Under the pieces are notes generated by a model that saw only the letters and a program-made list of their open reading frames with translations, made no database searches and was not told the origin of the DNA. From Escherichia phage ECO71P1: 64,000 nucleotides of DNA. How positions within the stretch are numbered: the first letter of the stretch is position 1; every line of letters begins with the position of its first letter. The DNA lies in the sequence record OP172789. One strand, given 5' to 3'. The position numbers and the translations under genes were made by a program. This document shows positions 3,247-29,361 of the stretch, in pieces.

Positions 3247-3479
3247 TTCTTTACTCCGAGTTCAATTTGATAGCCGATTGACAATTCATTTTCGCCGATG
3301 TTGAATGCATCGACTGGCTGCGACATCACCGCTTTTAAATATACCTTCTTGCGTCGCTTCGCCTTGTACAAACAACGGTCGCCGCTGCGGTTGTAAATAT
3401 TAAGCCAGGTGCGTTTGCTAATCTTATACGGCACATGCGGCTTGATGAATAATAAACGGGCCTTAAGATTTGATGTCAT
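3243..3479 (-). CDS. hypothetical protein (78 aa)
   Basis: ORF track; overlaps neighbours by 4 nt. Confidence 0.4.
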   Translation of the reverse strand: MTSNLKARLLFIKPHVPYKISKRTWLNIYNRSGDRCLYKAKRRKKVYLKAVMSQPVDAFNIGENELSIGYQIELGVKK

Positions 3480-3771
3480 AATATTTACCTCCAGCCATAT
3501 TCTCTTTAATTTCTTTTAATGCCGTGCGACCTGCTTTTGTCATCACCACGGATGAATAGCGCGTCGGGTCTTTCTCTCCTGGCACCGCCCAATCAACAAG
3601 GCCCAACCGGAATAAGACAGGGATTGATGGCGCATTGATGTCGTGGAAAAGTGATGGCCGCTTTTCATAAGCCTTCTTGCGGTCGCCGCGCAGCATGTAT
3701 GGCGTTCCATCTCCCATCCTGTACAATGTTTGAATTTGCGCTAGGCTTAGTCTCATTGTTGTCTTCTCCAA
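3463..3771 (-). CDS. hypothetical protein (102 aa)
   Basis: ORF track. Confidence 0.45.
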   Translation of the reverse strand: MEKTTMRLSLAQIQTLYRMGDGTPYMLRGDRKKAYEKRPSLFHDINAPSIPVLFRLGLVDWAVPGEKDPTRYSSVVMTKAGRTALKEIKENMAGGKYYDIKS

Positions 3772-3938
3772 ACTGCGTGTAATGTTTTCTGGTCGAACTT
3801 GGACAGCGTTTCACGCTCCGATGCTTTAAGGAATCGCGTGCCAAAGAACAGCATCCCTTGCGGCGTTTTAACGAGAGACACGCCTTTGTTACGGTAAAAG
3901 CTTACCAAGGCTGATGCGTTGTGGACTTCGGTAATCAT
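3753..3938 (-). CDS. hypothetical small protein (start moved to internal ATG after AAGGAG RBS)
   Basis: The annotated 3998 start lies inside a sigma70-like promoter; AAGGAG at 3947-3952 precedes ATG at 3938. Confidence 0.4.
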   Translation of the reverse strand: MITEVHNASALVSFYRNKGVSLVKTPQGMLFFGTRFLKASERETLSKFDQKTLHAVWRRQQ

Positions 3939-3959
3939 AATCATTTCTCCTTTGCTTGA

Positions 3960-4013
3960 TGAACTAAGTATAATACAGGCAAATAAAAAGGCAAGCATTT
4001 AGCTCACCTTTTT
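3960..4013 (-). promoter_or_regulatory. early promoter: conserved 27-bp element AAAAGGTGAGCTAAATGCTTGCCTTTT (minus-strand sense), then -35 TTGCCT and -10 TATACT
   Basis: -35/-10 hexamers with 16-17 bp spacing read directly; same element repeated at 5221-5274. Confidence 0.55.
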
Positions 4014-4016
4014 GAA

Positions 4017-4277
4017 TCAAATCTTCTTCGCCTCTTCGTGGAGGCCGACTGACCTTAGTTTGCGTCGCAAGTAAGCTTTCTTCTCGCTCTCCCGTCCTGC
4101 TGGAGTGACGCGCCAGCGTAATGTGTTCTCCAAATTCTTGCGTCGGTTGTGCTCGTCGAGTAGCTCTACCAGTGCCTTTGCATCGTCGAGTGTTAACACC
4201 ACTGGCCGCGACCCATTAACGGCTTGTCGAAGCTTCCGCGCGGCAACGGCCAACTTAGTCATCGGACCCTTGTTCAC
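4017..4277 (-). CDS. hypothetical protein (86 aa, basic)
   Basis: ORF track. Confidence 0.45.
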   Translation of the reverse strand: MNKGPMTKLAVAARKLRQAVNGSRPVVLTLDDAKALVELLDEHNRRKNLENTLRWRVTPAGRESEKKAYLRRKLRSVGLHEEAKKI

Positions 4278-4666
4278 GGCAACTCCTTATTCATTGGCGT
4301 AATGGAAAGCACCTTCACTTCAGTGATGTCACGGTTATATTCGCGCTTGATTTGTAGAATCTGGGATTGGATGCGCGCGATAAAGTGCCACGTTATGCCT
4401 TCCTTAACGTTAATCCAGGCCGCAAGCTGCATCGAGTCAATGTCACTTCTCAATGTCATCGGTCTGTAAACAGCACTTGGTGCACCACTAGCACCGTAAG
4501 CCAGTTGCGCGTCATAAGCTGAATACTTGAATGACACCAGGAACATTCTTTCTTCAAGTTGACTCTCGCTATTAGGATTCTTATCACAATTAGCCATATG
4601 CTGCACGAACTCTTCATGCGGAAGATGCATCACATCGTGGCAATACGGACAACGTTTCATTCTCAT
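4274..4666 (-). CDS. hypothetical protein with N-terminal Cys/His cluster (CPYCH...H...H...C), possible zinc-binding
   Basis: ORF track; Cys/His spacing in translation. Confidence 0.45.
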   Translation of the reverse strand: MRMKRCPYCHDVMHLPHEEFVQHMANCDKNPNSESQLEERMFLVSFKYSAYDAQLAYGASGAPSAVYRPMTLRSDIDSMQLAAWINVKEGITWHFIARIQSQILQIKREYNRDITEVKVLSITPMNKELP

Positions 4667-14254: not shown

Positions 14255-14310
14255 TAAGTTATCCCAAACGGGGAATATAAAATAAACTAATTTATTTAAG
14301 GACTGTGAAT

Positions 14311-15150
14311 ATGGCCGAAGCAATCAAAGTATTATCTAAAGAAGAAAAACAAGCAGCTGCAGCAGAACGTCGTCGCGTGGCTGAAGAAAAACGCCTGGCT
14401 AAAAAGAAAGAAGCCGAAGAAAAACGCCAGAAGCGTGAGCAGGAAAAACAAGCCAAGCGTGAAGAAGCTGCACTGAAACGCAAGCAGGCCGCTGATGAGA
14501 AAGCACAGAAACGTGCTGAAGAAGCAGCGAAGAAAGCCAAAGAGCGTGCAGAAAAAGCTGCTGCTAAGAAAGCAGAGCGTGAAGCCGCTAAAGCAGCAAA
14601 AGAAATCGAAAAGGCAAAGGCTAAAGAAGAAGCCAAGCGCCTGAAAGCTGAACAAGCTGCTGCTAAGAAAGCAGAGCGTGATCAAGCCCGTGCTGCAGCG
14701 AAGGCCGAAAAAGAGAAGGCCAAAGAAGAAGCTAAAGCGAAACGCAAGGCAGAGCGTGAAGCTGCTAAGATTGCGGCTAAAGAAGCTGCAGAAAAGCAGA
14801 AAGAACAGCGTAAGAAAGAAGCTGAAGAACGTCGCAAAGCCATCGCAGAACGTAAGGCTGCTAAAAAGGCAAACGGTCAGCGTCGTGCAAAAGCAACCCA
14901 CTTCATCTACACTGGCAATGGCCTGAGCCAGCCGCAAGAGCATTCCACCCGTGGACGCGTTCTGGCGGCGATCAAAGAAGGCGAAGTTGGCGTGGCGCAG
15001 TCTATCGATGAGCTGGGCGAAAAAGTTAAAGATCAACTGTTTGGCGCTTCCGTTCGCTCCTACCTGAGCAAGCTGGAAGAGATGGGCCACATCGAGTTTG
15101 TCGATGTTGAATCCAACGAAGATGCCGAAGACGGTGATCAAGCGGAATAA
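14311..15150 (+). CDS. Lys/Ala/Glu/Arg-rich low-complexity helical protein with C-terminal globular domain and acidic tail
   Basis: About 200 aa of KAEKAAAKKAEREA-type repeats (DNA-level direct repeats of gctgctaagaaagcagagcgtga), then ~70-aa non-repetitive domain ending EDAEDGDQAE; terminator follows. Confidence 0.7.
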   Translation: MAEAIKVLSKEEKQAAAAERRRVAEEKRLAKKKEAEEKRQKREQEKQAKREEAALKRKQAADEKAQKRAEEAAKKAKERAEKAAAKKAEREAAKAAKEIEKAKAKEEAKRLKAEQAAAKKAERDQARAAAKAEKEKAKEEAKAKRKAEREAAKIAAKEAAEKQKEQRKKEAEERRKAIAERKAAKKANGQRRAKATHFIYTGNGLSQPQEHSTRGRVLAAIKEGEVGVAQSIDELGEKVKDQLFGASVRSYLSKLEEMGHIEFVDVESNEDAEDGDQAE

Positions 15151-15175: not shown

Positions 15176-15206
15176 TTGACCCACACTTGTTGTGGGTCTT
15201 TTTTCA
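15176..15206 (+). terminator. rho-independent terminator (GACCCACA/TGTGGGTC stem plus TTTTTT)
   Basis: Perfect 8-bp stem, 5-nt loop, T6 tract. Confidence 0.7.
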
Positions 15207-15282: not shown

Positions 15283-16278
15283 ATGAACATGAAACAACCT
15301 GTAATGATTATCGGCGGCGGACTGGCAGGACTTATCACCGCTTGTCACTTCCCGAACTCTGTTGTGTACGAAGCAGGGGAACGAGCGCAACAGCACAAGG
15401 CGCTGCTACGCTTTCGCAGCGAAGAAGTAAGCCGTATTACCGGAATCCCTTTTAAGGCTGTGACAGTTGACAAGGCTGTGTATTTTCGCGGCCACTACTA
15501 CCACGACCATTGCCCAATCAACCTTGCCAATATGTATTCCATGAAGGTCACCAATCAATTTGGCAGCCGTTCAATCATGAAGCTTAAGACTGCAACGCGT
15601 TATATTGCGCCTGATGACTTTTATGATCAGCTTGTCGACAAACTGGGTGACCGAATATTCTTTAATACTCCGGTTGATACTCTTTGCGGCTATAGCGAGA
15701 CGCCAATCATCAACACGTCGCCGCTGCCAGTCATGATGAAGCTGGCTGGGATTGATCAAAAGCTTGATTTCTCATTTGATAAAGCAAACATTCGTGTTTA
15801 CCGCTTTAAGATTAAACGTAAGTGTGATTTGTATCAGACAATTTACTTCCCTGACTACTCCGTCAGAACTTACCGCGCATCAATTACTGGTGACACGCTT
15901 ATCATTGAAACAATTCCTTTGGTCAGCGTGAGTGAAGCTGCAGTTGAAGCCGCTGGCGGCATCACTCGTTACCGTGACATGAAGCTGCGCGCAGAAGTCG
16001 ACGAAGTGTTGACAGCCTTTGGCCTCTCATGGAGCGACATCGCTCTTGAAGAAGTTGAAAAGGTCGACCAGAAATATGGCAAGATTGTCGACATTCCGAA
16101 AGACTTGCGACACGCCCTACTCCTGCAGCTGACTATGGATTTGAACGTGTTCAGTGTCGGTCGATTTGCTACCTGGCGCAACATTTTGCTTGATGACGTT
16201 GCCCATGACCTTGTTGAAGTTGAAAAACTCATCAAAGCAAATAACTATCAAAAATTTGCTTATATTGCTAATAAATAA
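15283..16278 (+). CDS. FAD/NAD(P)-binding Rossmann-fold oxidoreductase (flavoprotein-like)
   Basis: N-terminal dinucleotide-binding motif VMIIGGGLAGL...E; 331 aa; exact family unresolved. Confidence 0.55.
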   Translation: MNMKQPVMIIGGGLAGLITACHFPNSVVYEAGERAQQHKALLRFRSEEVSRITGIPFKAVTVDKAVYFRGHYYHDHCPINLANMYSMKVTNQFGSRSIMKLKTATRYIAPDDFYDQLVDKLGDRIFFNTPVDTLCGYSETPIINTSPLPVMMKLAGIDQKLDFSFDKANIRVYRFKIKRKCDLYQTIYFPDYSVRTYRASITGDTLIIETIPLVSVSEAAVEAAGGITRYRDMKLRAEVDEVLTAFGLSWSDIALEEVEKVDQKYGKIVDIPKDLRHALLLQLTMDLNVFSVGRFATWRNILLDDVAHDLVEVEKLIKANNYQKFAYIANK

Positions 16279-16343: not shown

Positions 16344-16790
16344 ATGAAACGAATCACTGGAATCGCGCTTGCCGCTACTGCTATTCTCGGCACCATGTAT
16401 ATGGAAGCAACTGAAGCTGCCATCCGCACTTCCGATTCAGTCGCTGTTTACGATTGCGAAGCGATGGACGGTAAGACCGCAGCAACGACTGGTGCGAAGA
16501 TTACCACTTACATCGGTGTGAATGAGCAAGAAGGTCTGAATATTCAGATTCAGGGATTCACAGGGAAAGGTGCCAACCGTACTCCGTGGATGCAACGTTT
16601 CACTTTCGTCCAGCCTCGTTCAACTGGCGGCTTTATCAATCTGATTGGTGAAAACCGTTCTGGTGCAGAAATCTTTACATCAATGAGTTCTAATAATGAA
16701 CCAAAGAAAAGTTTTCAGTTGCTTTATAACGCACAATTCGTTTATCATTGCACCTTCTCTGGTGATCAGCAACTAGTGAATTACCGTTAA
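16344..16790 (+). CDS. hypothetical exported protein (N-terminal signal-peptide-like segment, two Cys)
   Basis: MKRITGIALAATAILGTMYMEATEAA hydrophobic N-terminus; good RBS. Confidence 0.5.
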   Translation: MKRITGIALAATAILGTMYMEATEAAIRTSDSVAVYDCEAMDGKTAATTGAKITTYIGVNEQEGLNIQIQGFTGKGANRTPWMQRFTFVQPRSTGGFINLIGENRSGAEIFTSMSSNNEPKKSFQLLYNAQFVYHCTFSGDQQLVNYR

Positions 16791-16803: not shown

Positions 16804-17577
16804 ATGAAAGTTGAATTAATTCGATACACCCAAGATGCACTTGACCTTTTGCTGGAAACAAAGAACACGCGCATGACTGGTAAGCCTGTCTCTGAGATGA
16901 CGGAATCAGAGAAGCAAGAGCATTGGCGCTACATGCTTGATACAATCAAGTCACCTTTTGACTTTGTGGACTATATCTTTGACATAACCGTTGTTTCAAA
17001 GAATATGACTCATCAGATGGTCCGAACACGCGCAGGCGCATATCAAGAACGCACCAGTCGCGCTCAGGAATCTTCTGCATTTGATGCGATTCGCCCTAAA
17101 GCATTTGAGCACCCTGACGGCTCCACAAGCGAGCTTGGCGAGAAGTGGGATGATGCGATGGCGACTATTGATGCCATATATCAAGAGCTTCGCGCGGCTG
17201 GCGCAGAGATTCAGGATGCGCGTGCCGTGTTGCCTTCTAATATGCAAACGCATATCATGGCAAAGTTCAACTTGCGCACGCTGCAGCAGATGGCGTCAAA
17301 CCGCTTGTGCACGCGCACTCAAGGCGAGTATCAAGAAGTATTCCGCGCAATGGTTGCGGAAGTCCTCAAGGTGCACCCGTGGGCTAATCCTTTGCTGCAG
17401 CCGCAATGCATCGGTATGGGTAAGTGTGCGTTTCCTCGTCACGGTAAAGCCCATTGCCCTTGGTATCGTGATTGGATGGATACCACTGCACAGCAGGAAG
17501 AGTTGCGCATTCAGTTTTGGGATGCCGCGCCAATCACCAACAATCCAGTTGCTAAAGATGGAGTATCAAAAGGATGA
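16804..17577 (+). CDS. thyX: ThyX-like flavin-dependent thymidylate synthase homologue with altered signature (RTR...TSR in place of RHR...SQRY)
   Basis: SKNMTHQMVRTRAGAYQERTSRAQ aligns to the ThyX RHRx7S block as recalled; 257 aa; translationally coupled to next gene. Confidence 0.6.
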   Translation: MKVELIRYTQDALDLLLETKNTRMTGKPVSEMTESEKQEHWRYMLDTIKSPFDFVDYIFDITVVSKNMTHQMVRTRAGAYQERTSRAQESSAFDAIRPKAFEHPDGSTSELGEKWDDAMATIDAIYQELRAAGAEIQDARAVLPSNMQTHIMAKFNLRTLQQMASNRLCTRTQGEYQEVFRAMVAEVLKVHPWANPLLQPQCIGMGKCAFPRHGKAHCPWYRDWMDTTAQQEELRIQFWDAAPITNNPVAKDGVSKG

Positions 17578-18446
17578 GTTTTAAAAATAACCAAATCTTG
17601 AACGTATTCGACCTTGACGGAACTCTGTTTGATGACCGTTGGCGCTTAGACCGCATCAAGATTGCAGGTCCGTTGTCAGACTATGATGACTATCACAGCG
17701 GTATTGGTTATGATCAGTTCTATCCTCACATTGCAGCAGCAGTAGAGTCAGCATCTCTTCGCGGTGAGGCGGTTGAATATTGGACTGCAAGGCCAGAAAA
17801 ATACAGACAAGTGACTTTTGAACGTCTGGACAATGTTTTTCCTTTTGATGAATTTACAATCAAGATGAGAGACTCTGGCGACAAACGTCCATCAACTATT
17901 ATGAAATCTGAATGGCTATCGCACGCTTTGCGGCACGGCGATTATCGAATCATCAATATATTCGACGACCGACAAGACGTACTCGCGCGGATGCAAGATG
18001 AAGCCTTGTATTATAATTCCGTTGCTCAAAATAAAATCGCTTTTACGTTTAATCTTTGCAAGGCAGGTGAAGTGGTGCAACAATTAGCAATTGATCCAAG
18101 CGCAACGGGGCAAGAAGAGACTAAGGCTGTGGAAATTGAACAATCTCCGGCAACCGCCGCCGATATTCTTGATGCGATGGCAGCAACCTTCCGTGAGCGC
18201 AACGCTGTCTATGGCGATAACGCTGTGATGGTAGGCCAGGTTATGCAGGTGCTTTTCCCTAATGGCGTAACGTTGAAAACGCCGGAAGACTACCACATGT
18301 GGCATCTGTTCGAGCTTAAGATTGTCAAGCTTACACGCTTTGCAATCAGCGGCCTGAAGCACGAAGACTCTATACACGACGATGGTGTTTACAGCGCCAT
18401 GTGTGAACGTCTTGTCAACACCCATAATATTAATTTCAATAAATAG
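17574..18446 (+). CDS. HAD-superfamily phosphatase domain fused to a C-terminal domain of unknown function
   Basis: N-terminal DLDGTL (HAD motif I); ATGA overlap with the ThyX-like gene. Confidence 0.55.
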   Translation: MSFKNNQILNVFDLDGTLFDDRWRLDRIKIAGPLSDYDDYHSGIGYDQFYPHIAAAVESASLRGEAVEYWTARPEKYRQVTFERLDNVFPFDEFTIKMRDSGDKRPSTIMKSEWLSHALRHGDYRIINIFDDRQDVLARMQDEALYYNSVAQNKIAFTFNLCKAGEVVQQLAIDPSATGQEETKAVEIEQSPATAADILDAMAATFRERNAVYGDNAVMVGQVMQVLFPNGVTLKTPEDYHMWHLFELKIVKLTRFAISGLKHEDSIHDDGVYSAMCERLVNTHNINFNK

Positions 18447-18484
18447 TTTACTTGTGCGTTTCGATGAGTTATATTTATCTCATC
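18447..18484 (+). promoter_or_regulatory. promoter (-35 TTTACT, 17 bp, -10 TATATT) with GATGAG/CTCATC dyad bracketing the -10, followed by CATCGAAACGAA leader
   Basis: Read directly; same architecture at 25423-25460. Confidence 0.45.
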
Positions 18485-18511
18485 GAAACGAAGTCCAAAA
18501 AGGATAAATAA

Positions 18512-19195
18512 ATGAAAAAAGTAATTGTTGTAACTGGCTGCAATTCCGGTCTTGGTAAATCCATTTTTGACACCCTTGGCGCTTACGGTCACGAAGTTGT
18601 CGGTATTGATTTGGACAACGGTTATGACATCCGTAACGCGAAACAGATGAAAGAGCTTCTCTCTCAATACGACGTAGAGGGCTTGATCAACTGCGCTGGC
18701 GTCAACTCCAACAACTGGTTTGAAGACGTTAACTACGAAGAGTTTAATCGCGTTATGCACACCAACGCCTTCTCTTTCGTTAACACGACTCAGGCCGCGC
18801 TGAAAAGTCTTATTGACAACAAAGGTTTTGTGATCAACATCGTTTCCAACGCTGCGCATATTCCTATGACGTCCAGCTTGTGTTATAATGCTTCCAAGGC
18901 CGCTGCGCTTATGATTAGCAAGCAGATGGCTCACGAGCTTACGCCTAAATACGGGATCACGGTCTTCTCTATTAGTCCTAACAAGTTGCGTGGCACTGGT
19001 ATGTCTAAACAGATTGAAGATGCTGTTTGCGCGACTCGCGGCTGGACTCCTGAGTATGCTGCTGAATACCAGAAAAAGGCGTTGATGAATGGATTGGAGA
19101 CTGAGCCGCAAGTAATTGCTGACTTCATTCGCCATATCTTAATTACGGGCGCATGGCGCTTTATGTCTGGTACTGATATTCCATTTGGGAAATAA
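18512..19195 (+). CDS. short-chain dehydrogenase/reductase (SDR) family oxidoreductase
   Basis: TGxxxGxG (VTGCNSGLGKS), NCAG, catalytic YNASK motifs. Confidence 0.75.
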   Translation: MKKVIVVTGCNSGLGKSIFDTLGAYGHEVVGIDLDNGYDIRNAKQMKELLSQYDVEGLINCAGVNSNNWFEDVNYEEFNRVMHTNAFSFVNTTQAALKSLIDNKGFVINIVSNAAHIPMTSSLCYNASKAAALMISKQMAHELTPKYGITVFSISPNKLRGTGMSKQIEDAVCATRGWTPEYAAEYQKKALMNGLETEPQVIADFIRHILITGAWRFMSGTDIPFGK

Positions 19196-19434: not shown

Positions 19435-19986
19435 ATGCCACACTTTAAAATTGAACAAATCGCCCTGTCAATTCCAGATGCTCAGCGTGCACAGGATTTT
19501 CTGGCTAAAATCGGCCTGACAGAATGGTTCCATGATCATGTTGTTGCTACTGGTCGCGTATTTGAAAATGACGAGTTTAAAGGTCGTCGCGACGATTGCA
19601 CCAACGAAGCTGACTTGCGATTCAACTATCAGGCTGGCAACGGCACCGATGGCGGCGCTGGTAAGCCTCTTGAGCTTGAAATCCTTGACTACACAATGGG
19701 TTGCAACTGGATCAACGAAAACATCGACATGCTTGATGCGCACGATAATCAGGTCAGCCATCTTGGCATGCATGTGACTGCCGCTGAACTTGCTGAATGG
19801 CGTAAGTTCTTTAAAGAAGAAGGCATTCAGGTTGCGCAGGAAGTCGTAACTGACTCTCACACCAACCCAAATATTGCTGGTCAGCGTCGTTACAACTATG
19901 TGATCTTTGATACGCGTGAAATCATCGGTGTCGACCTTAAGTTCATTGTGCGGTTGAATCAAGACGGTACTCCGTACACTGCATAA
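19435..19986 (+). CDS. VOC (glyoxalase/bleomycin-resistance/dioxygenase)-like protein, tentative
   Basis: Size and N-terminal pattern reminiscent of VOC fold; weak assignment. Confidence 0.35.
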   Translation: MPHFKIEQIALSIPDAQRAQDFLAKIGLTEWFHDHVVATGRVFENDEFKGRRDDCTNEADLRFNYQAGNGTDGGAGKPLELEILDYTMGCNWINENIDMLDAHDNQVSHLGMHVTAAELAEWRKFFKEEGIQVAQEVVTDSHTNPNIAGQRRYNYVIFDTREIIGVDLKFIVRLNQDGTPYTA

Positions 19987-20002: not shown

Positions 20003-20027
20003 GGCCGTCCTAATGGGCGGCCTTTTT
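20003..20027 (+). terminator. rho-independent terminator (GGCCGTCC ... GGGCGGCC plus TTTTT)
   Basis: GC-rich hairpin followed by T5. Confidence 0.55.
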
Positions 20028-27278: not shown

Positions 27279-27797
27279 ATGATAGAAAGAATTGTACCGT
27301 TACTGAAGATTCTTGCCCTTGTTGGCGCGTTCGCCGCTGGGTCATACGTTGAAGACCTTAAGCAAACCAACGCATCACTGGCCAAGGATAATCAATATCT
27401 TACATCGCTTAATGAGCGTAAGGACAAGATAAATGTACTCGAAGAGCAAATTGCATCTTTACAGGTTGAATCGGCATCGGCATATGAGAAGGGTCGCCAG
27501 GAAGCGCAACTGGTTGCTGATGACACTATTGCTCGTTACAAGTCTGGGAATATCAAGCTGCGCGAGCAACTCAGCTGCTCCCGTGAATTACTCAGGAGTG
27601 TGCCCGACTCTGCGACCACTGGACGCCTCTCTATCCCAGAAGGAAACTGTGGACTATCAGAAGAGGATGTCAGATTTCTTGTTCAGTTCGCCGCAGAAAC
27701 AAACCGATTAAAAGAGAAGGTTAATAGCTTGATTGATACTTATAATCAGGCTAAAATTAAAATCGACCAATTCAACGCATCAAAGGAAAATAAATGA
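27279..27797 (+). CDS. i-spanin (Rz-like): N-terminal TM helix plus coiled-coil periplasmic domain
   Basis: TM segment IVPLLKILALVGAFAAGSYV, coiled-coil remainder, embedded out-of-frame lipoprotein ORF. Confidence 0.65.
   Translation: MIERIVPLLKILALVGAFAAGSYVEDLKQTNASLAKDNQYLTSLNERKDKINVLEEQIASLQVESASAYEKGRQEAQLVADDTIARYKSGNIKLREQLSCSRELLRSVPDSATTGRLSIPEGNCGLSEEDVRFLVQFAAETNRLKEKVNSLIDTYNQAKIKIDQFNASKENK
27484..27711 (+). CDS. o-spanin (Rz1-like) lipoprotein embedded in the +1 frame of the i-spanin gene
   Basis: MRRVARKRNWLLMTLLLVTSLGISSC: basic n-region, hydrophobic core, lipobox-like ISSC; short mature peptide; entirely within 27279-27797. Confidence 0.6.
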   Translation: MRRVARKRNWLLMTLLLVTSLGISSCASNSAAPVNYSGVCPTLRPLDASLSQKETVDYQKRMSDFLFSSPQKQTD

Positions 27798-28387
27798 ACC
27801 AGATTTATGCAAACATTCGCCAGTGGGCTTCTGACCGTAACATCATCAAAGGTTGCGACCTTAAGGACCAATACCCGAAGCTTATTAGCGAGTTTGGGGA
27901 GTTGACCGACCACGTGGATCAACTCCATGACCTTGTGTTCTTTGACCCTGAAATCGGATATACAGAGCAGGCCATCTGTGATTTACAAGCCGCAATCAAG
28001 GACGACATCGGCGATTGCCTTGTTGTGTTAACTATCCTTGCCGCGCAAAATGGTGCAAAAATCGAAGACATCAACGGCGGCGGTTGCGCCGACAAAGGTG
28101 CCCACCCTCACTCGTTTATCCTTCGCTTGGCAAAGACTCTCGGACGGCTTGGTGATGCCATTGCTAAAAATCAGAGTATGGATATTGATGTCACCATCAT
28201 GGCCGCAGTCGATTACCTTTCCGGCGTAGCACATGATTATGGACTTCGACTGTCTGATTGCGCTCAGGCCGCCTATGAAGACATCAAGGACCGTAAAGGC
28301 GTGATGTACAACGGAACGTTCATCAAATCGACTGATCAGGCTTACGCCTATGCGCTGGAACAAGTGATGAATAAGGAGTTTGAGTGA
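27794..28387 (+). CDS. MazG-like nucleoside triphosphate pyrophosphohydrolase
   Basis: LISEFGELTDHV (E-x-x-E-x-GEL-type motif) and downstream acidic DDIGD; ATGA overlap with spanin gene. Confidence 0.65.
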   Translation: MNQIYANIRQWASDRNIIKGCDLKDQYPKLISEFGELTDHVDQLHDLVFFDPEIGYTEQAICDLQAAIKDDIGDCLVVLTILAAQNGAKIEDINGGGCADKGAHPHSFILRLAKTLGRLGDAIAKNQSMDIDVTIMAAVDYLSGVAHDYGLRLSDCAQAAYEDIKDRKGVMYNGTFIKSTDQAYAYALEQVMNKEFE

Positions 28388-29361
28388 TGGCAGGAGAAAT
28401 CAAAGCACTAAAACCGATGAAAGGTTGCCAGCGTAAACAAATCATTGAGCGCGGCGAAGACGTGCCGCTGCCTTGCGGGTTGTCATTCAAGGTCGATGGC
28501 ATACGCGCGATGGCGTATGACAACTTGCCAATGGGTACGTCCGGCATGGCGTTGCGAAACGTTCAGATTAAAAAAGAGTTCCTCTTTTTGGGTGAATTGA
28601 TTCACGGCCTTGATGGAGAGCTTATTGACGGCAATCCGAATGATAAGAACGTCATGCAGCAAGCCTATACCGCATGCATGAATACCGATGCTATAACAAA
28701 CTTCACATGGTGGGTGTTTGATGACTTTAGCGACCCTGATTTGCCTTTCTCGGCACGTTATGAGCAATACAATCGACGCGTTGCTGAGGTCAATCAATAC
28801 CTCATTGACCATGGCCGACGTCCATTCCTTCGCGCTCTCGAATATCGCAACATCGAAAATATGGAACAGTACGCGGCAATGCAAATCGAAGCAGACCAGC
28901 TTGGCTATGAAGGCTTGTATGGCAAGTCTTGGACGGGCAAATACAAGCATGGCCGCGCGACGCCAAAGTCACGTGATGTGTGGAAGGACAAGCCGTGGAC
29001 CGATGAAGAAGGACTGATCATAGACTTCGTTGAGATGATGGAGAACAACAACGAAGCGTTCATTGATGAGTTGGGTCGCACTAAGCGTTCAAAAGAGGCT
29101 GAAGGCTTAGTCGCAAAAGGATACCTTGGCTCATTCGTAGTTGTCAATCCAAAGTATGTGGATGAGAAAGGTGAAATGATTCCTTTCCGCGTCTCCGCTG
29201 GTTCAATGCCTATGGCAGAGAGAAAAATGCTTTGGGAGAATCGCGAGAATTATCGCAACAAATATCTGACATATAAATTCTTTAACTTTGGCATCGTTGA
29301 CGTGCCGCGCTCTGCCTTGTATAAGTGCTTCCGTGATATTACCGATATGGAGTATTTTTAA
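28384..29361 (+). CDS. ATP-dependent DNA ligase
   Basis: Adenylation motif I KVDGIR; 325 aa. Confidence 0.75.
   Translation: MMAGEIKALKPMKGCQRKQIIERGEDVPLPCGLSFKVDGIRAMAYDNLPMGTSGMALRNVQIKKEFLFLGELIHGLDGELIDGNPNDKNVMQQAYTACMNTDAITNFTWWVFDDFSDPDLPFSARYEQYNRRVAEVNQYLIDHGRRPFLRALEYRNIENMEQYAAMQIEADQLGYEGLYGKSWTGKYKHGRATPKSRDVWKDKPWTDEEGLIIDFVEMMENNNEAFIDELGRTKRSKEAEGLVAKGYLGSFVVVNPKYVDEKGEMIPFRVSAGSMPMAERKMLWENRENYRNKYLTYKFFNFGIVDVPRSALYKCFRDITDMEYF

Follow-up and report, generated by a model that had tools for sequence, protein, structure and literature searches.

The window analysed here is a 64,000 nt stretch of Escherichia phage ECO71P1 (OP172789), a Wifcevirus belonging to the PB1-like myoviruses of E. 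coli. On its plus strand, nt 17574–18446 (stop codon included) encode a 290 aa protein in which a HAD phosphatase is joined to a second, helical domain. The ORF begins at the first start codon past an in-frame stop, and its product matches phrog_4889 over the full length (E = 1.3e-118). The gene is present in 28 phage records at nucleotide identities of 91–96%, and 217 protein homologs were found, confirming that it is real and not a chance ORF. It is found in all PB1-like phages, among them the Wifceviruses of E. coli and the Pbunaviruses that are widely applied in phage therapy against Pseudomonas.

The gene is part of a compact module, all on the plus strand. The first gene (nt 15283–16278) specifies a FAD/NAD-fold protein of unknown function (phrog_4828, E = 1e-150); in profile searches of the PDB, only its N-terminal GxGxxG region found matches, to amine-oxidase/LAAO flavoproteins. 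Then come a ThyX-like gene (nt 16804–17577), the fusion gene, a classical short-chain dehydrogenase/reductase (SDR; nt 18512–19195; PF00106, 110 bits) and, in last position, a VOC/glyoxalase-like protein (nt 19435–19986) that weakly matches PF13669 and whose ortholog in Serratia phage MTx is annotated as glyoxalase-like. Collinearity of the FAD-like gene with ThyX holds in almost every locus, and the SDR and VOC genes are also conserved, collinear neighbours. Intrinsic-terminator-like hairpins lie at both ends, one at nt 15178–15198 (8 bp stem, then TTTTTT) and the other at nt 20003–20022 (8 bp stem with 7 GC pairs, then TTTTT). Since both are canonical terminators, as predicted by the scan, they probably mark the boundaries of an operon containing the FAD-like, ThyX, fusion, SDR and VOC genes, which is newly described here. 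The second hairpin precedes the exonuclease and Pol III alpha genes, and throughout the PB1-like phage supergroup the operon is found just upstream of these two. In Pbunaviruses the FAD-like, ThyX and fusion genes are present while the SDR and VOC genes are absent.

The ThyX-like protein matches the flavin-dependent thymidylate synthases (PF02511, 106 bits) but belongs to a divergent clade with a Cys-rich C-terminal extension. It scores 73.7 bits against TIGR02170, below the cutoff of 87.9, and its motif reads R-T-R (R-T/N-R in the clade) instead of the canonical RHR, the Ser position of the ThyX motif (RHRxxxxxxxS) being variable. The arginines equivalent to T. maritima R78, R80, R90, R147 and R174 are kept. 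The stop codon of this gene (TGA, nt 17575–17577) and the start codon of the fusion gene (ATG, nt 17574–17576) share an ATGA at nt 17574–17577, an overlap described in the first-pass annotation and annotated alike in Bas99 and Mansfield; a GGAG lies 10 nt 5′ of the ATG. The 4 nt overlap is common to Wifceviruses but not to all relatives, as Serratia phage MTx has a 4 nt gap between the two genes and Pbunavirus SN a small ORF.

The tight linkage to the ThyX-like gene that the overlap had suggested extends well beyond this genome. It was seen in about 80 metagenomic loci, in Pbunavirus, in Serratia phage MTx, in a Rhizobium jumbo phage and with stand-alone versions of the helical domain, and ThyX is immediately upstream in essentially every sufficiently long locus. 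In Rhizobium phage Y65, the fusion gene sits between ThyX and dUTPase/RNR genes. Most of this adjacency comes from phages with one common ancestral replication module, so that it may partly represent inherited synteny rather than functional coupling. Direct fusions of ThyX to the HAD or DUF6378 domains were also considered; the two candidate 'ThyX' ORFs, of 398 aa and 496 aa, proved to be out-of-frame extensions of the HAD gene.

The N-terminal half of the protein (aa 1–175; nt 17574–18098) is predicted to be a HAD phosphatase domain of the T4 Pnkp type. Motif I (DLDGTL) is found near the N-terminus, as reported earlier, at aa 13–18 (nt 17610–17627), and the catalytic motifs are intact, all of them being conserved across 120 homologs. 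D13 and D15 of motif I (D13-L-D15-G-T17) and T71 of motif II (T71-x-R73) are kept in 99% of these proteins, and K111 of motif III and both aspartates of motif IV (D131/D132) in 100%. More broadly, at least 92% of the aligned homologs keep R24, D47, R73, R99, K111, D131, D132 and R133, which align with the T4 Pnkp active-site residues R176, D187, R213, R246, K258, D277, D278 and R279, the phosphate-contacting arginines among them. PF25109 (HAD_PNKP) matches aa 11–142 at 36.1 bits, above the Pfam gathering cutoff of 27.6 bits, and a profile of the family retrieves T4 Pnkp (5UJ0, 1LTQ) and Pnkp1 (4XRP) from the PDB with E values of 5e-7 to 6e-6. The AF2 model has a pLDDT above 90 over most of the domain. 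This half most likely represents a phosphomonoesterase of the T4 Pnkp 3′-phosphatase type.

The HAD subfamily is common to the fusion protein, T4 Pnkp, the Pnkp1 of bacterial Pnkp1-Rnl-Hen1 RNA repair and PF25109, and is marked by a DxDGT nucleophile motif, an S/T-x-R motif II, a conserved Lys and a DD-R motif IV. T4 Pnkp residues D187, S211, R213, R246, K258, D277, D278 and R279 align with family-invariant residues, and by motif spacing we take D13, D15 and R24 to be the counterparts of T4 D165, D167 and R176. The residue aligned with T4 D254 is S107, which is neither acidic nor conserved. There are also differences from T4 Pnkp. The phosphatase is N-terminal in the fusion and C-terminal in T4 Pnkp, a DUF6378 four-helix bundle takes the place of the P-loop kinase domain, and the gene context consists of ThyX and replisome genes instead of an RNA ligase. 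A Walker A motif (GxxxxGK[ST]) is absent from the 290 aa sequence, and no kinase or AAA family of Pfam was matched. The protein has no kinase domain; its non-HAD part is a four-helix bundle. The usual database label of phrog_4889, "polynucleotide kinase/phosphorylase", is misleading, because the kinase domain is absent, the partner is a DUF6378 bundle and the gene context is ThyX plus replisome.

HAD 5′(3′)-deoxyribonucleotidases of the NT5C family, which include human cdN/mdN and homologs in phages and prophages, have pyrimidine deoxynucleotides as substrates and control the dTTP/dUMP pools. The first-pass annotation had envisaged a role of this kind, in which a canonical dNMP would be dephosphorylated. 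NT5C-type enzymes are HAD phosphatases too, but of another subfamily that has a cap domain, and NT5C (PF06941) was not matched in a Pfam scan of the fusion protein. The matches to PF25109 and to the three Pnkp structures correct the assignment and place this half outside the classical 5′-nucleotidase type, and dephosphorylation of canonical dNMPs is weakened as a proposal by the Pnkp-type assignment. The 3′ ends of nucleic acids are better-known targets of the Pnkp-type HAD fold than free nucleotide pools, which speaks against a role in the nucleotide pool.

The second domain had been outlined as a C-terminal segment of about 130 aa. Its fusion to the HAD domain stands, but it is shorter, comprising about 97 aa (aa 194–290; nt 18153–18443). 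The AF2 model shows four helices (pLDDT 93.4), and twelve residues are invariant: N210, Y213, F228, P229, G231, K252, R255, H263, D265, S266, D269 and Y273. The earlier statement that it matches no nameable family is correct for direct Pfam/NCBIfam scans of the query, since aa 151–290 and 183–290 gave no Pfam match even at E values up to 10, but profile methods relate it to DUF6378 (PF19905). While the query itself falls below Pfam detection (the PF19905 gathering score is 27.1 bits), 36 of the 44 family members match this profile weakly (best E = 2e-4), and stand-alone relatives exceed the gathering score (34.8 bits for P0126). An hhalign comparison of the C-domain family with canonical DUF6378 gave 88% (E = 3.2e-6, 84 columns), with the R..YG, K..R and H.DS..D..Y motifs in register, and the fold matches in BFVD were proteins of the DUF6378 and Nmad1 kinds. 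Among solved structures and characterised families, none was found to resemble the domain informatively. On these profile and fold matches, it is a divergent, four-helix member of DUF6378, which is a phage family of unknown function.

DUF6378 domains are about 80–100 aa long with four helices, and have the signature R..YG ... K..R ... H.DS..D..(G)Y in common with the C-domain. The subfamily found in the fusion differs from the canonical one by an extra FPNGV loop and an HLFEL motif, and by typically being fused or adjacent to a HAD phosphatase, 3′ of ThyX. The family is very common, with 2,634 clusters at 50% identity and representatives in more than 1,500 sequenced phages, and its members are often mis-annotated as 'phosphofructokinase' (phrog_474, phrog_1167). 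Both the canonical genes, in unrelated phages, and the C-domain of the fusion are located in replication or nucleotide-metabolism modules, although canonical DUF6378 is also found without ThyX. The search of the C-terminal part led, then, to an uncharacterised family in such neighbourhoods, and not to a well-characterised one unrelated to nucleotide metabolism, the outcome that the first-pass annotation had named as contrary to its proposal. In mycobacteriophage Tiger, the DUF6378 gene overlaps a gene for a calcineurin-like phosphoesterase; a general adjacency to phosphoesterases was not borne out in four other sampled lineages, leaving the Tiger arrangement as a hint only.

A second family, Nmad1/DUF1599 (PF07659, 'nucleotide modification associated domain 1'), is also a small helical viral domain and, like DUF6378, is uncharacterised; the Nmad domains were reportedly first named by Iyer et al. 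in Nucleic Acids Res in 2013. Its tie to the C-domain consists of one weak Foldseek match to an Nmad1-named protein (E = 0.05, TM about 0.5) and an analogous gene context, as viruses of Asgard archaea have a dUTPase-ThyX-Nmad1 block. PF07659 was not matched by any of the 44 family members at E values up to 1. A literature search found no functional study of the fusion gene, DUF6378 or Nmad1.

The four helices and the conserved acidic and basic residues are also reminiscent of the all-alpha NTP pyrophosphatases, and the C-domain might be a cryptic MazG-type or dimeric-dUTPase-type enzyme. In that case, the fusion would either degrade an unwanted (d)NTP stepwise, from NTP to NMP to nucleoside, or supply ThyX with dUMP made from dUTP or dCTP. 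The genome has no dUTPase, and the thymine-replacing phages PBS2 and phi-e offer a precedent in their dTTPase/dUTPase and dTMPase activities. The conserved residues of the C-domain, however, do not make an ExxE...ExxD pattern, none of the 44 family members matched a MazG-clan family of Pfam at E values up to 1, and hhalign against the MazG-like protein of the phage itself returned a probability of 1.5%. That protein is encoded by a separate gene, and true dUTPases accompany the domain in the Rhizobium phage and Asgard virus contexts. With no sequence, profile or fold support, a MazG-like identity of the C-domain was rejected, and this kind of activity is very unlikely.

The two domains are connected by a flexible linker (aa 176–193; nt 18099–18152), which has a pLDDT of about 50–74 in the full-length model and whose length in homologs varies between 3 and 291 aa. 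Interdomain packing is not confidently predicted (pTM 0.63). An arrangement in which the C-domain caps the HAD active site was considered, and is unsupported given the low-confidence linker, its variable length and the pTM value.

Each of the top 120 homologs has the HAD and C-terminal domains in a single protein. Two further arrangements are new to this analysis: the halves occur as separate, adjacent genes (loci L085, L086, L093/L094 and L097), and the helical domain also occurs behind ThyX on its own, overlapping the ThyX stop codon where HAD is missing (L087/L088/L089). In Rhizobium phage Y65 and in P0135, the C-domain is joined to a second HAD subtype. No known domains were found in the C-terminal extensions of stand-alone members. 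We infer that the two halves work together, because they are fused in the top homologs, split into adjacent genes elsewhere, and the C-domain has also been combined with the second HAD subtype.

The two halves are under very different constraint. Conservation within the module is highest in the C-domain (62–82% identity, compared to 37–47% for Pol IIIα), a result not previously described, and lowest in the HAD half. Compared to phage Mansfield, the last 97 codons carry 16 synonymous and 0 non-synonymous changes, whereas the 175 codons of the HAD half carry 29 non-synonymous changes. In P0013, an otherwise near-identical phage, the HAD half is only 40% identical and the C-domain 100%. The HAD half is fast-evolving and has been exchanged between otherwise near-identical phages (P0013, Mansfield). 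Because the C-domain is conserved across phages of many hosts, its partner is more plausibly a universal ligand than a co-evolving protein.

These patterns bear on whether the bundle is purely a structural or oligomerisation module of the phosphatase, with neither a ligand nor a catalytic role. Small helical bundles often mediate oligomerisation, and T4 Pnkp is a tetramer built via its two domains. Against this, the invariant residues have polar or charged side chains (N, Y, K, R, H, D, S, D, Y) and do not suggest a hydrophobic interface. The domain is also more conserved than the polymerase, forms a family of thousands of clusters, and exists as a gene of its own, in some cases without a phosphatase in the vicinity. 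A solely structural role is quite unlikely.

Our preferred reading, held tentatively and at a little under an even chance, is that the protein processes phosphate groups as an accessory factor in the thymidylate synthesis or replication of the phage. DUF6378 would be the constrained core, recognising a universal phosphorylated, nucleotide-type ligand, as its conservation pattern suggests. Contact with the ligand could be made through the invariant polar residues N210, Y213, K252, R255, H263, D265, S266, D269 and Y273, which, as deduced from the helix topology, would cluster at a single pole of the helical bundle. The HAD domain, tethered and evolving fast, would remove a phosphomonoester from the substrate bound by DUF6378, or from a related one, the likeliest target being the 3′-phosphate of a short nucleic acid or of a deoxynucleotide, as for T4 Pnkp. 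Together, the two domains might supply or police deoxynucleotide substrates for thymidylate synthesis and DNA replication.

The main rival, possible but on balance doubtful, is 3′-end healing of DNA or RNA, as carried out by the phosphatase half of T4 Pnkp. Here, 3′-phosphates or 2′,3′-cyclic phosphates would be cleared from broken nucleic acids for the phage polymerase or ATP-dependent ligase, in repair or to counter host nuclease defence, with DUF6378 binding nucleic acid or a replisome partner. The Pnkp-type HAD half fits this, with conserved equivalents of T4 R176, D187, R213, R246, K258, D277, D278 and R279, as do the ATP-dependent DNA ligase encoded by the phage, the nearby exonuclease and Pol III alpha genes, and the frequent position of canonical DUF6378 genes between polymerase and primase genes. 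A fast-evolving, exchanged HAD half is also a pattern typical of conflict-related proteins. Against it, the protein has no kinase domain and the genome no RNA ligase, the ligase gene is about 10 kb distant, and it is ThyX rather than any repair gene that most constantly adjoins the fusion gene. The stand-alone helical domain is kept beside ThyX without any phosphatase, and the invariant acidic and hydroxyl residues D265, S266 and D269 would be unusual on a DNA-binding surface.

The operon could instead modify DNA bases or produce a non-canonical pyrimidine nucleotide, with the phosphatase processing an intermediate, and its product might explain why Wifceviruses are insensitive to most restriction-modification (RM) systems. 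Avoidance of restriction sites as the cause of that insensitivity was ruled out for EcoRI, EcoRV, EcoKI and EcoP1; the window contains 16 EcoRI, 7 EcoRV and 3 EcoKI sites, which would suit a modified genome. The atypical ThyX clade, with R-T/N-R for RHR and a score below the TIGR02170 cutoff, its three uncharacterised redox-type or VOC partners in the operon, and the database name of the Nmad1-type domains, which refers to an association with nucleotide modification, all point the same way. The dUMP-binding arginines of ThyX are nevertheless conserved, and known hallmark enzymes of hypermodification (5-hmdU DNA kinase, aGPT-Pplase and glycosyltransferase) are not annotated in the genome. Wifceviruses are still very sensitive to EcoP1_I, and Pbunaviruses dispense with the SDR and VOC genes. 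In addition, a Wifcevirus genome has been rebooted from PCR-amplified, unmodified fragments (PMC11074155). A modification pathway is on this evidence unlikely. It is a long shot that the atypical-ThyX operon constitutes a new pathway for making or editing such a nucleotide, with DUF6378 as an unrecognised catalytic or substrate-carrier domain and a product that underlies the RM insensitivity.

Whichever reading applies, DUF6378 is a very common phage domain (more than 2,600 clusters) with no known structure or function, and its repeated association with ThyX, dUTPase and phosphoesterases suggests that the thymidylate or DNA metabolism of viruses includes a step not yet recognised. Solving the function of the family would give this domain a role and correct a widespread annotation error. 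The family is tractable by experiment, since phages Bas98-101 grow on E. coli K-12 derivatives.

A last feature of the locus is found in the 65 nt spacer 3′ of the fusion gene, where nt 18457–18490 (plus strand) are predicted to form a stable hairpin without a U-tract (RNA fold −22.1 kcal/mol, z = −4.95).

The fusion gene occupies nt 17574..18446 (+ strand) and encodes a protein of 290 aa, with the motif DLDGTL at residues 13–18. Its ATG (17574–17576) overlaps the TGA stop (17575–17577) of the ThyX-like ORF (16804..17577), so that both the N-terminal motif and the ATGA overlap reported in the first-pass annotation are confirmed. The region covering ThyX and the HAD phosphatase occurs in 28 phage genomes at 91–96% nucleotide identity, all of them Wifceviruses (~68 kb myoviruses on E. 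coli or Shigella, related to the Pseudomonas PB1-like phages). As a protein search also returned 217 homologs, and PHROGs family phrog_4889 spans the protein at full length (E 1e-118), this is not a chance ORF.

Pfam matches only PF25109, the polynucleotide kinase/phosphatase phosphatase domain (aa 11–142; 36.1 bits, cutoff 27.6 bits). Aligning 120 homologs shows the four HAD motifs (D13/D15, T71-A-R73-P, K111 and D131-D132) to be invariant or nearly so, together with D21, R24, Y40, H41, D47, R99, R133 and D135; the HAD phosphatase proposed earlier thus has its catalytic residues intact. The family profile matches structures of T4 Pnkp (5UJ0, E 5e-7; 1LTQ, E 6e-6) and of Pnkp1 (4XRP, E 8e-7). 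Profile alignments to the structures pair D47, T71, R73 and R99 with T4 D187, S211, R213 and R246, and K111, D131, D132 and R133 with K258, D277, D278 and R279, while motif spacing matches D13, D15 and R24 to T4 D165, D167 and R176. As the 290 aa sequence carries no Walker A motif, and a Pfam scan gave no kinase-family match, the protein is a Pnkp-type phosphatase minus the kinase. The names in GenBank and PHROGs ('polynucleotide kinase/phosphorylase' and '3'-phosphatase, 5'-polynucleotide kinase') therefore claim more than the gene contains.

The C-terminal part had been described as matching no nameable family. This holds for direct scans, in which residues 151–290 or 183–290 found nothing meaningful in Pfam (E up to 10) or NCBIfam, but not for profile comparison, which places it in DUF6378 (PF19905). 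Weak matches to PF19905 were given by 36 of 44 non-redundant C-terminal segments (best E 2e-4), and the C-domain of the homolog from Rhizobium jumbo phage Y65 retrieved stand-alone proteins of 94–147 aa (48–63% identity), one of which (P0126) scores 34.8 bits, above the gathering threshold of DUF6378. Four canonical members of DUF6378 (Tiger gp48, 110 bits; Splinter gp72, 122 bits; a Sulfitobacter phage protein, 104 bits; KayaCho gp49, 87 bits) formed a profile to which that of the HAD-fused C-domains aligned at 88% probability and E 3.2e-6 over 84 columns, the motifs R..YG, K..R and H.DS..D..Y being in register. The AlphaFold2 prediction is a bundle of four helices (195–213, 216–227, 237–258 and 264–278), modelled with confidence (pLDDT 93.4). 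Searches with PDB sequence profiles yielded nothing beyond marginal matches to POU domains, which were unsupported by fold searches. Support for a MazG-like pyrophosphatase was also looked for and none was found; such an activity is highly improbable.

In the full-length model each domain is confident, the linker (aa 176–193) is not, and pTM is 0.63. Since the linker also varies from 3 to 291 residues among homologs, the two domains act as tethered modules. Their rates of change are very different. Within the Wifceviruses the C-domain is 99–100% identical, and the HAD half falls to 54%, even 40%, identity. Comparison with phage Mansfield shows 26 synonymous and 29 non-synonymous codon changes in the HAD half, against 16 and none in the C-domain. 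Among ~45 metagenomic relatives no segment anywhere in the region is better conserved than the C-domain (62–82% identity; Pol III alpha 37–47%, ThyX 40–47%), and none less well than the HAD half (26–35% or undetectable). The constraint on the helical domain is extreme. The HAD half (17574–18098) is hypervariable against homologs P0005, P0011 and P0013 (95% down to 40%) from otherwise near-identical Wifceviruses, a pattern suggestive of recombinational swapping at the linker or of diversifying selection on the phosphatase.

Seven residues of the C-domain (Y213, P229, G231, K252, R255, D265 and S266) are invariant in fused and stand-alone members, and N210, G214, H263, D269 and Y273 are nearly so. 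Given its up-down topology, one pole of the bundle should bring together the ends of helices 1 (N210/Y213) and 3 (K252/R255) with the start of helix 4 (H263–Y273), and the K/R and D/S/D/H/Y cluster may be a phosphate- or metal-binding site. A purely structural role for the domain is very unlikely. The domain probably recognises something universal, for it is kept in phages of Escherichia, Pseudomonas, Serratia, Xanthomonas, Burkholderia, Rhizobium and uncultured hosts even though neighbouring phage proteins diverge; a ligand of this kind would more likely be a small molecule or a nucleic acid than a protein co-evolving with it.

An exhaustive profile search found 2,634 clusters (50% identity) of the helical domain, and the 150 best of these divide about evenly between small stand-alone proteins and C-terminal fusions. 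In loci L085, L086, L093/L094 and L097 the HAD and helical domains are separate, adjacent genes downstream of ThyX, the HAD identity being confirmed by the family HMM (E 1e-27 to 1e-36). An assembly error does not seem to explain the L093/L094 split, because its stand-alone helical-domain protein (P0134) is found on 24 contigs. In these two loci (3392–4324) a 78 aa ORF lies between the two genes, overlapping that for the helical domain, and takes the position of the linker in fused proteins. In L087, L088 and L089 a stand-alone helical domain directly follows ThyX with a 4 nt overlap, and the contig region contains no HAD gene. The unrelated phage Y65 carries a shorter HAD subtype, shared with homolog P0135, fused to the helical domain between ThyX and dUTPase/RNR. 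A dUTPase-ThyX-Nmad1 block occurs in Asgard archaeal viruses. L095 is an exception, without ThyX and beside a carbamoyltransferase. In two HAD-less relatives the stand-alone gene is followed by a sulfotransferase (L087, 1142–1999) or a NodU/CmcH-type carbamoyltransferase (L095, 4288–5925), both of them group-transfer enzymes and not usual members of a replication module.

There are 1,551 phage records with canonical DUF6378, and many of them label it 'phosphofructokinase'. Its genes are further exceptions to the position after ThyX: they lie between those for polymerase and primase in cluster-B mycobacteriophages, beside a primosomal protein in a Sulfitobacter phage and, in Microbacterium phage Albright, with dUTPase and thymidylate kinase ~1.6 kb downstream. 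In Mycobacterium phage Tiger (L099, 3004–4238), gp48, itself labelled 'phosphofructokinase', overlaps the start of gp47, a calcineurin-like metallophosphoesterase and so a second, non-homologous phosphoesterase partner; four further lineages that were sampled lacked such a pairing.

The operon is bounded by canonical intrinsic terminators at 15178–15198 and 20003–20022 (both + strand). The seven genes between them encode a FAD/NAD-fold protein (phrog_4828), a signal-peptide protein, ThyX, the fusion, an SDR, a 71 aa membrane protein and a VOC/glyoxalase-like protein; next in line are those for the exonuclease and Pol III alpha. From the FAD-like gene through ThyX, HAD/C-domain, SDR and VOC to exonuclease and polymerase, this order is found in almost all of 80 IMG/VR loci, in Serratia phage MTx and in Bas99, and, minus the SDR and VOC genes, in Pbunavirus SN. 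The 148 aa protein with a signal-peptide-like N-terminus (16344–16790), encoded upstream of ThyX and after the FAD-like gene, matches nothing in Pfam or PHROGs and, among the loci compared, occurs in Wifceviruses only; its gene looks like a moron within the conserved operon. The short spacer between the fusion and SDR genes holds a hairpin (18457–18490; 12 bp perfect stem, −22.1 kcal/mol, z = −4.95) without a U-tract, which may serve RNA processing or stability instead of termination. At 14305–15150, a 281 aa protein (phrog_4765) is low-complexity and extremely Lys/Glu/Ala-rich over its N-terminal two-thirds, and spurious long antisense ORFs overlap its gene.

The two halves, fused or adjacent and placed after ThyX, probably act on the same process. 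We tentatively favour, at somewhat under an even chance, a role in phosphate processing, accessory to viral thymidylate synthesis and replication, in which the Pnkp-type HAD would be the hydrolytic module. The main alternative, a Pnkp-like enzyme healing 3' ends, is rather unlikely. In its favour, the HAD subtype is that of Pnkp, the phage encodes an ATP-dependent DNA ligase and the HAD half evolves fast, as in a conflict; against it, neither kinase nor RNA ligase is found, and ThyX and the helical domain persist without HAD. The ligase gene (28384–29361) is itself overlapped by 4 nt by that of a MazG-like pyrophosphatase (phrog_1992; 27794–28387), a second tightly coupled pair of nucleotide and DNA enzymes in ECO71P1.

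Near-identical sequences are already in public databases, and both halves have named families. A literature search found no publication on the architecture of a kinase-less Pnkp-type phosphatase with DUF6378, on the variants of it that are split or lack HAD, on how constantly it is coupled to ThyX, or on the extraordinary conservation of the DUF6378 part. The gene gives clean, testable access to a domain that is very common in phages, and puts right a widespread annotation error, the kinase label; it overturns nothing and is not surprising enough to do so.

The ThyX itself (16804–17577) is atypical. In the phage supergroup R-T-R replaces the canonical RHR (R-N-R in Y65), the motif serine is not conserved, and the protein scores 73.7, below the TIGR02170 cutoff of 87.9. 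Most members carry a Cys-rich C-terminal extension (C..C..C..C, ~aa 195–257). These departures from RHR and from the cutoff would fit a nucleotide-modification role for the operon, as would the sites for EcoRI (16), EcoRV (7), EcoKI (3) and EcoP1 (74), which the window does not avoid although the genus has been reported to be insensitive to most RM systems. Such a role is nonetheless quite unlikely: the dUMP-binding arginines of ThyX are conserved, known hypermodification enzymes are absent from the genome annotation, and a Wifcevirus has been successfully rebooted from PCR fragments (PMC11074155). Across the window (1–64000) GATC is strongly depleted (106 observed, ~256 expected; z = −10.6), CCGG is depleted (z = −6.3), BamHI sites number 0, and GAAGA, AAGCTT and AATATT are over-represented.
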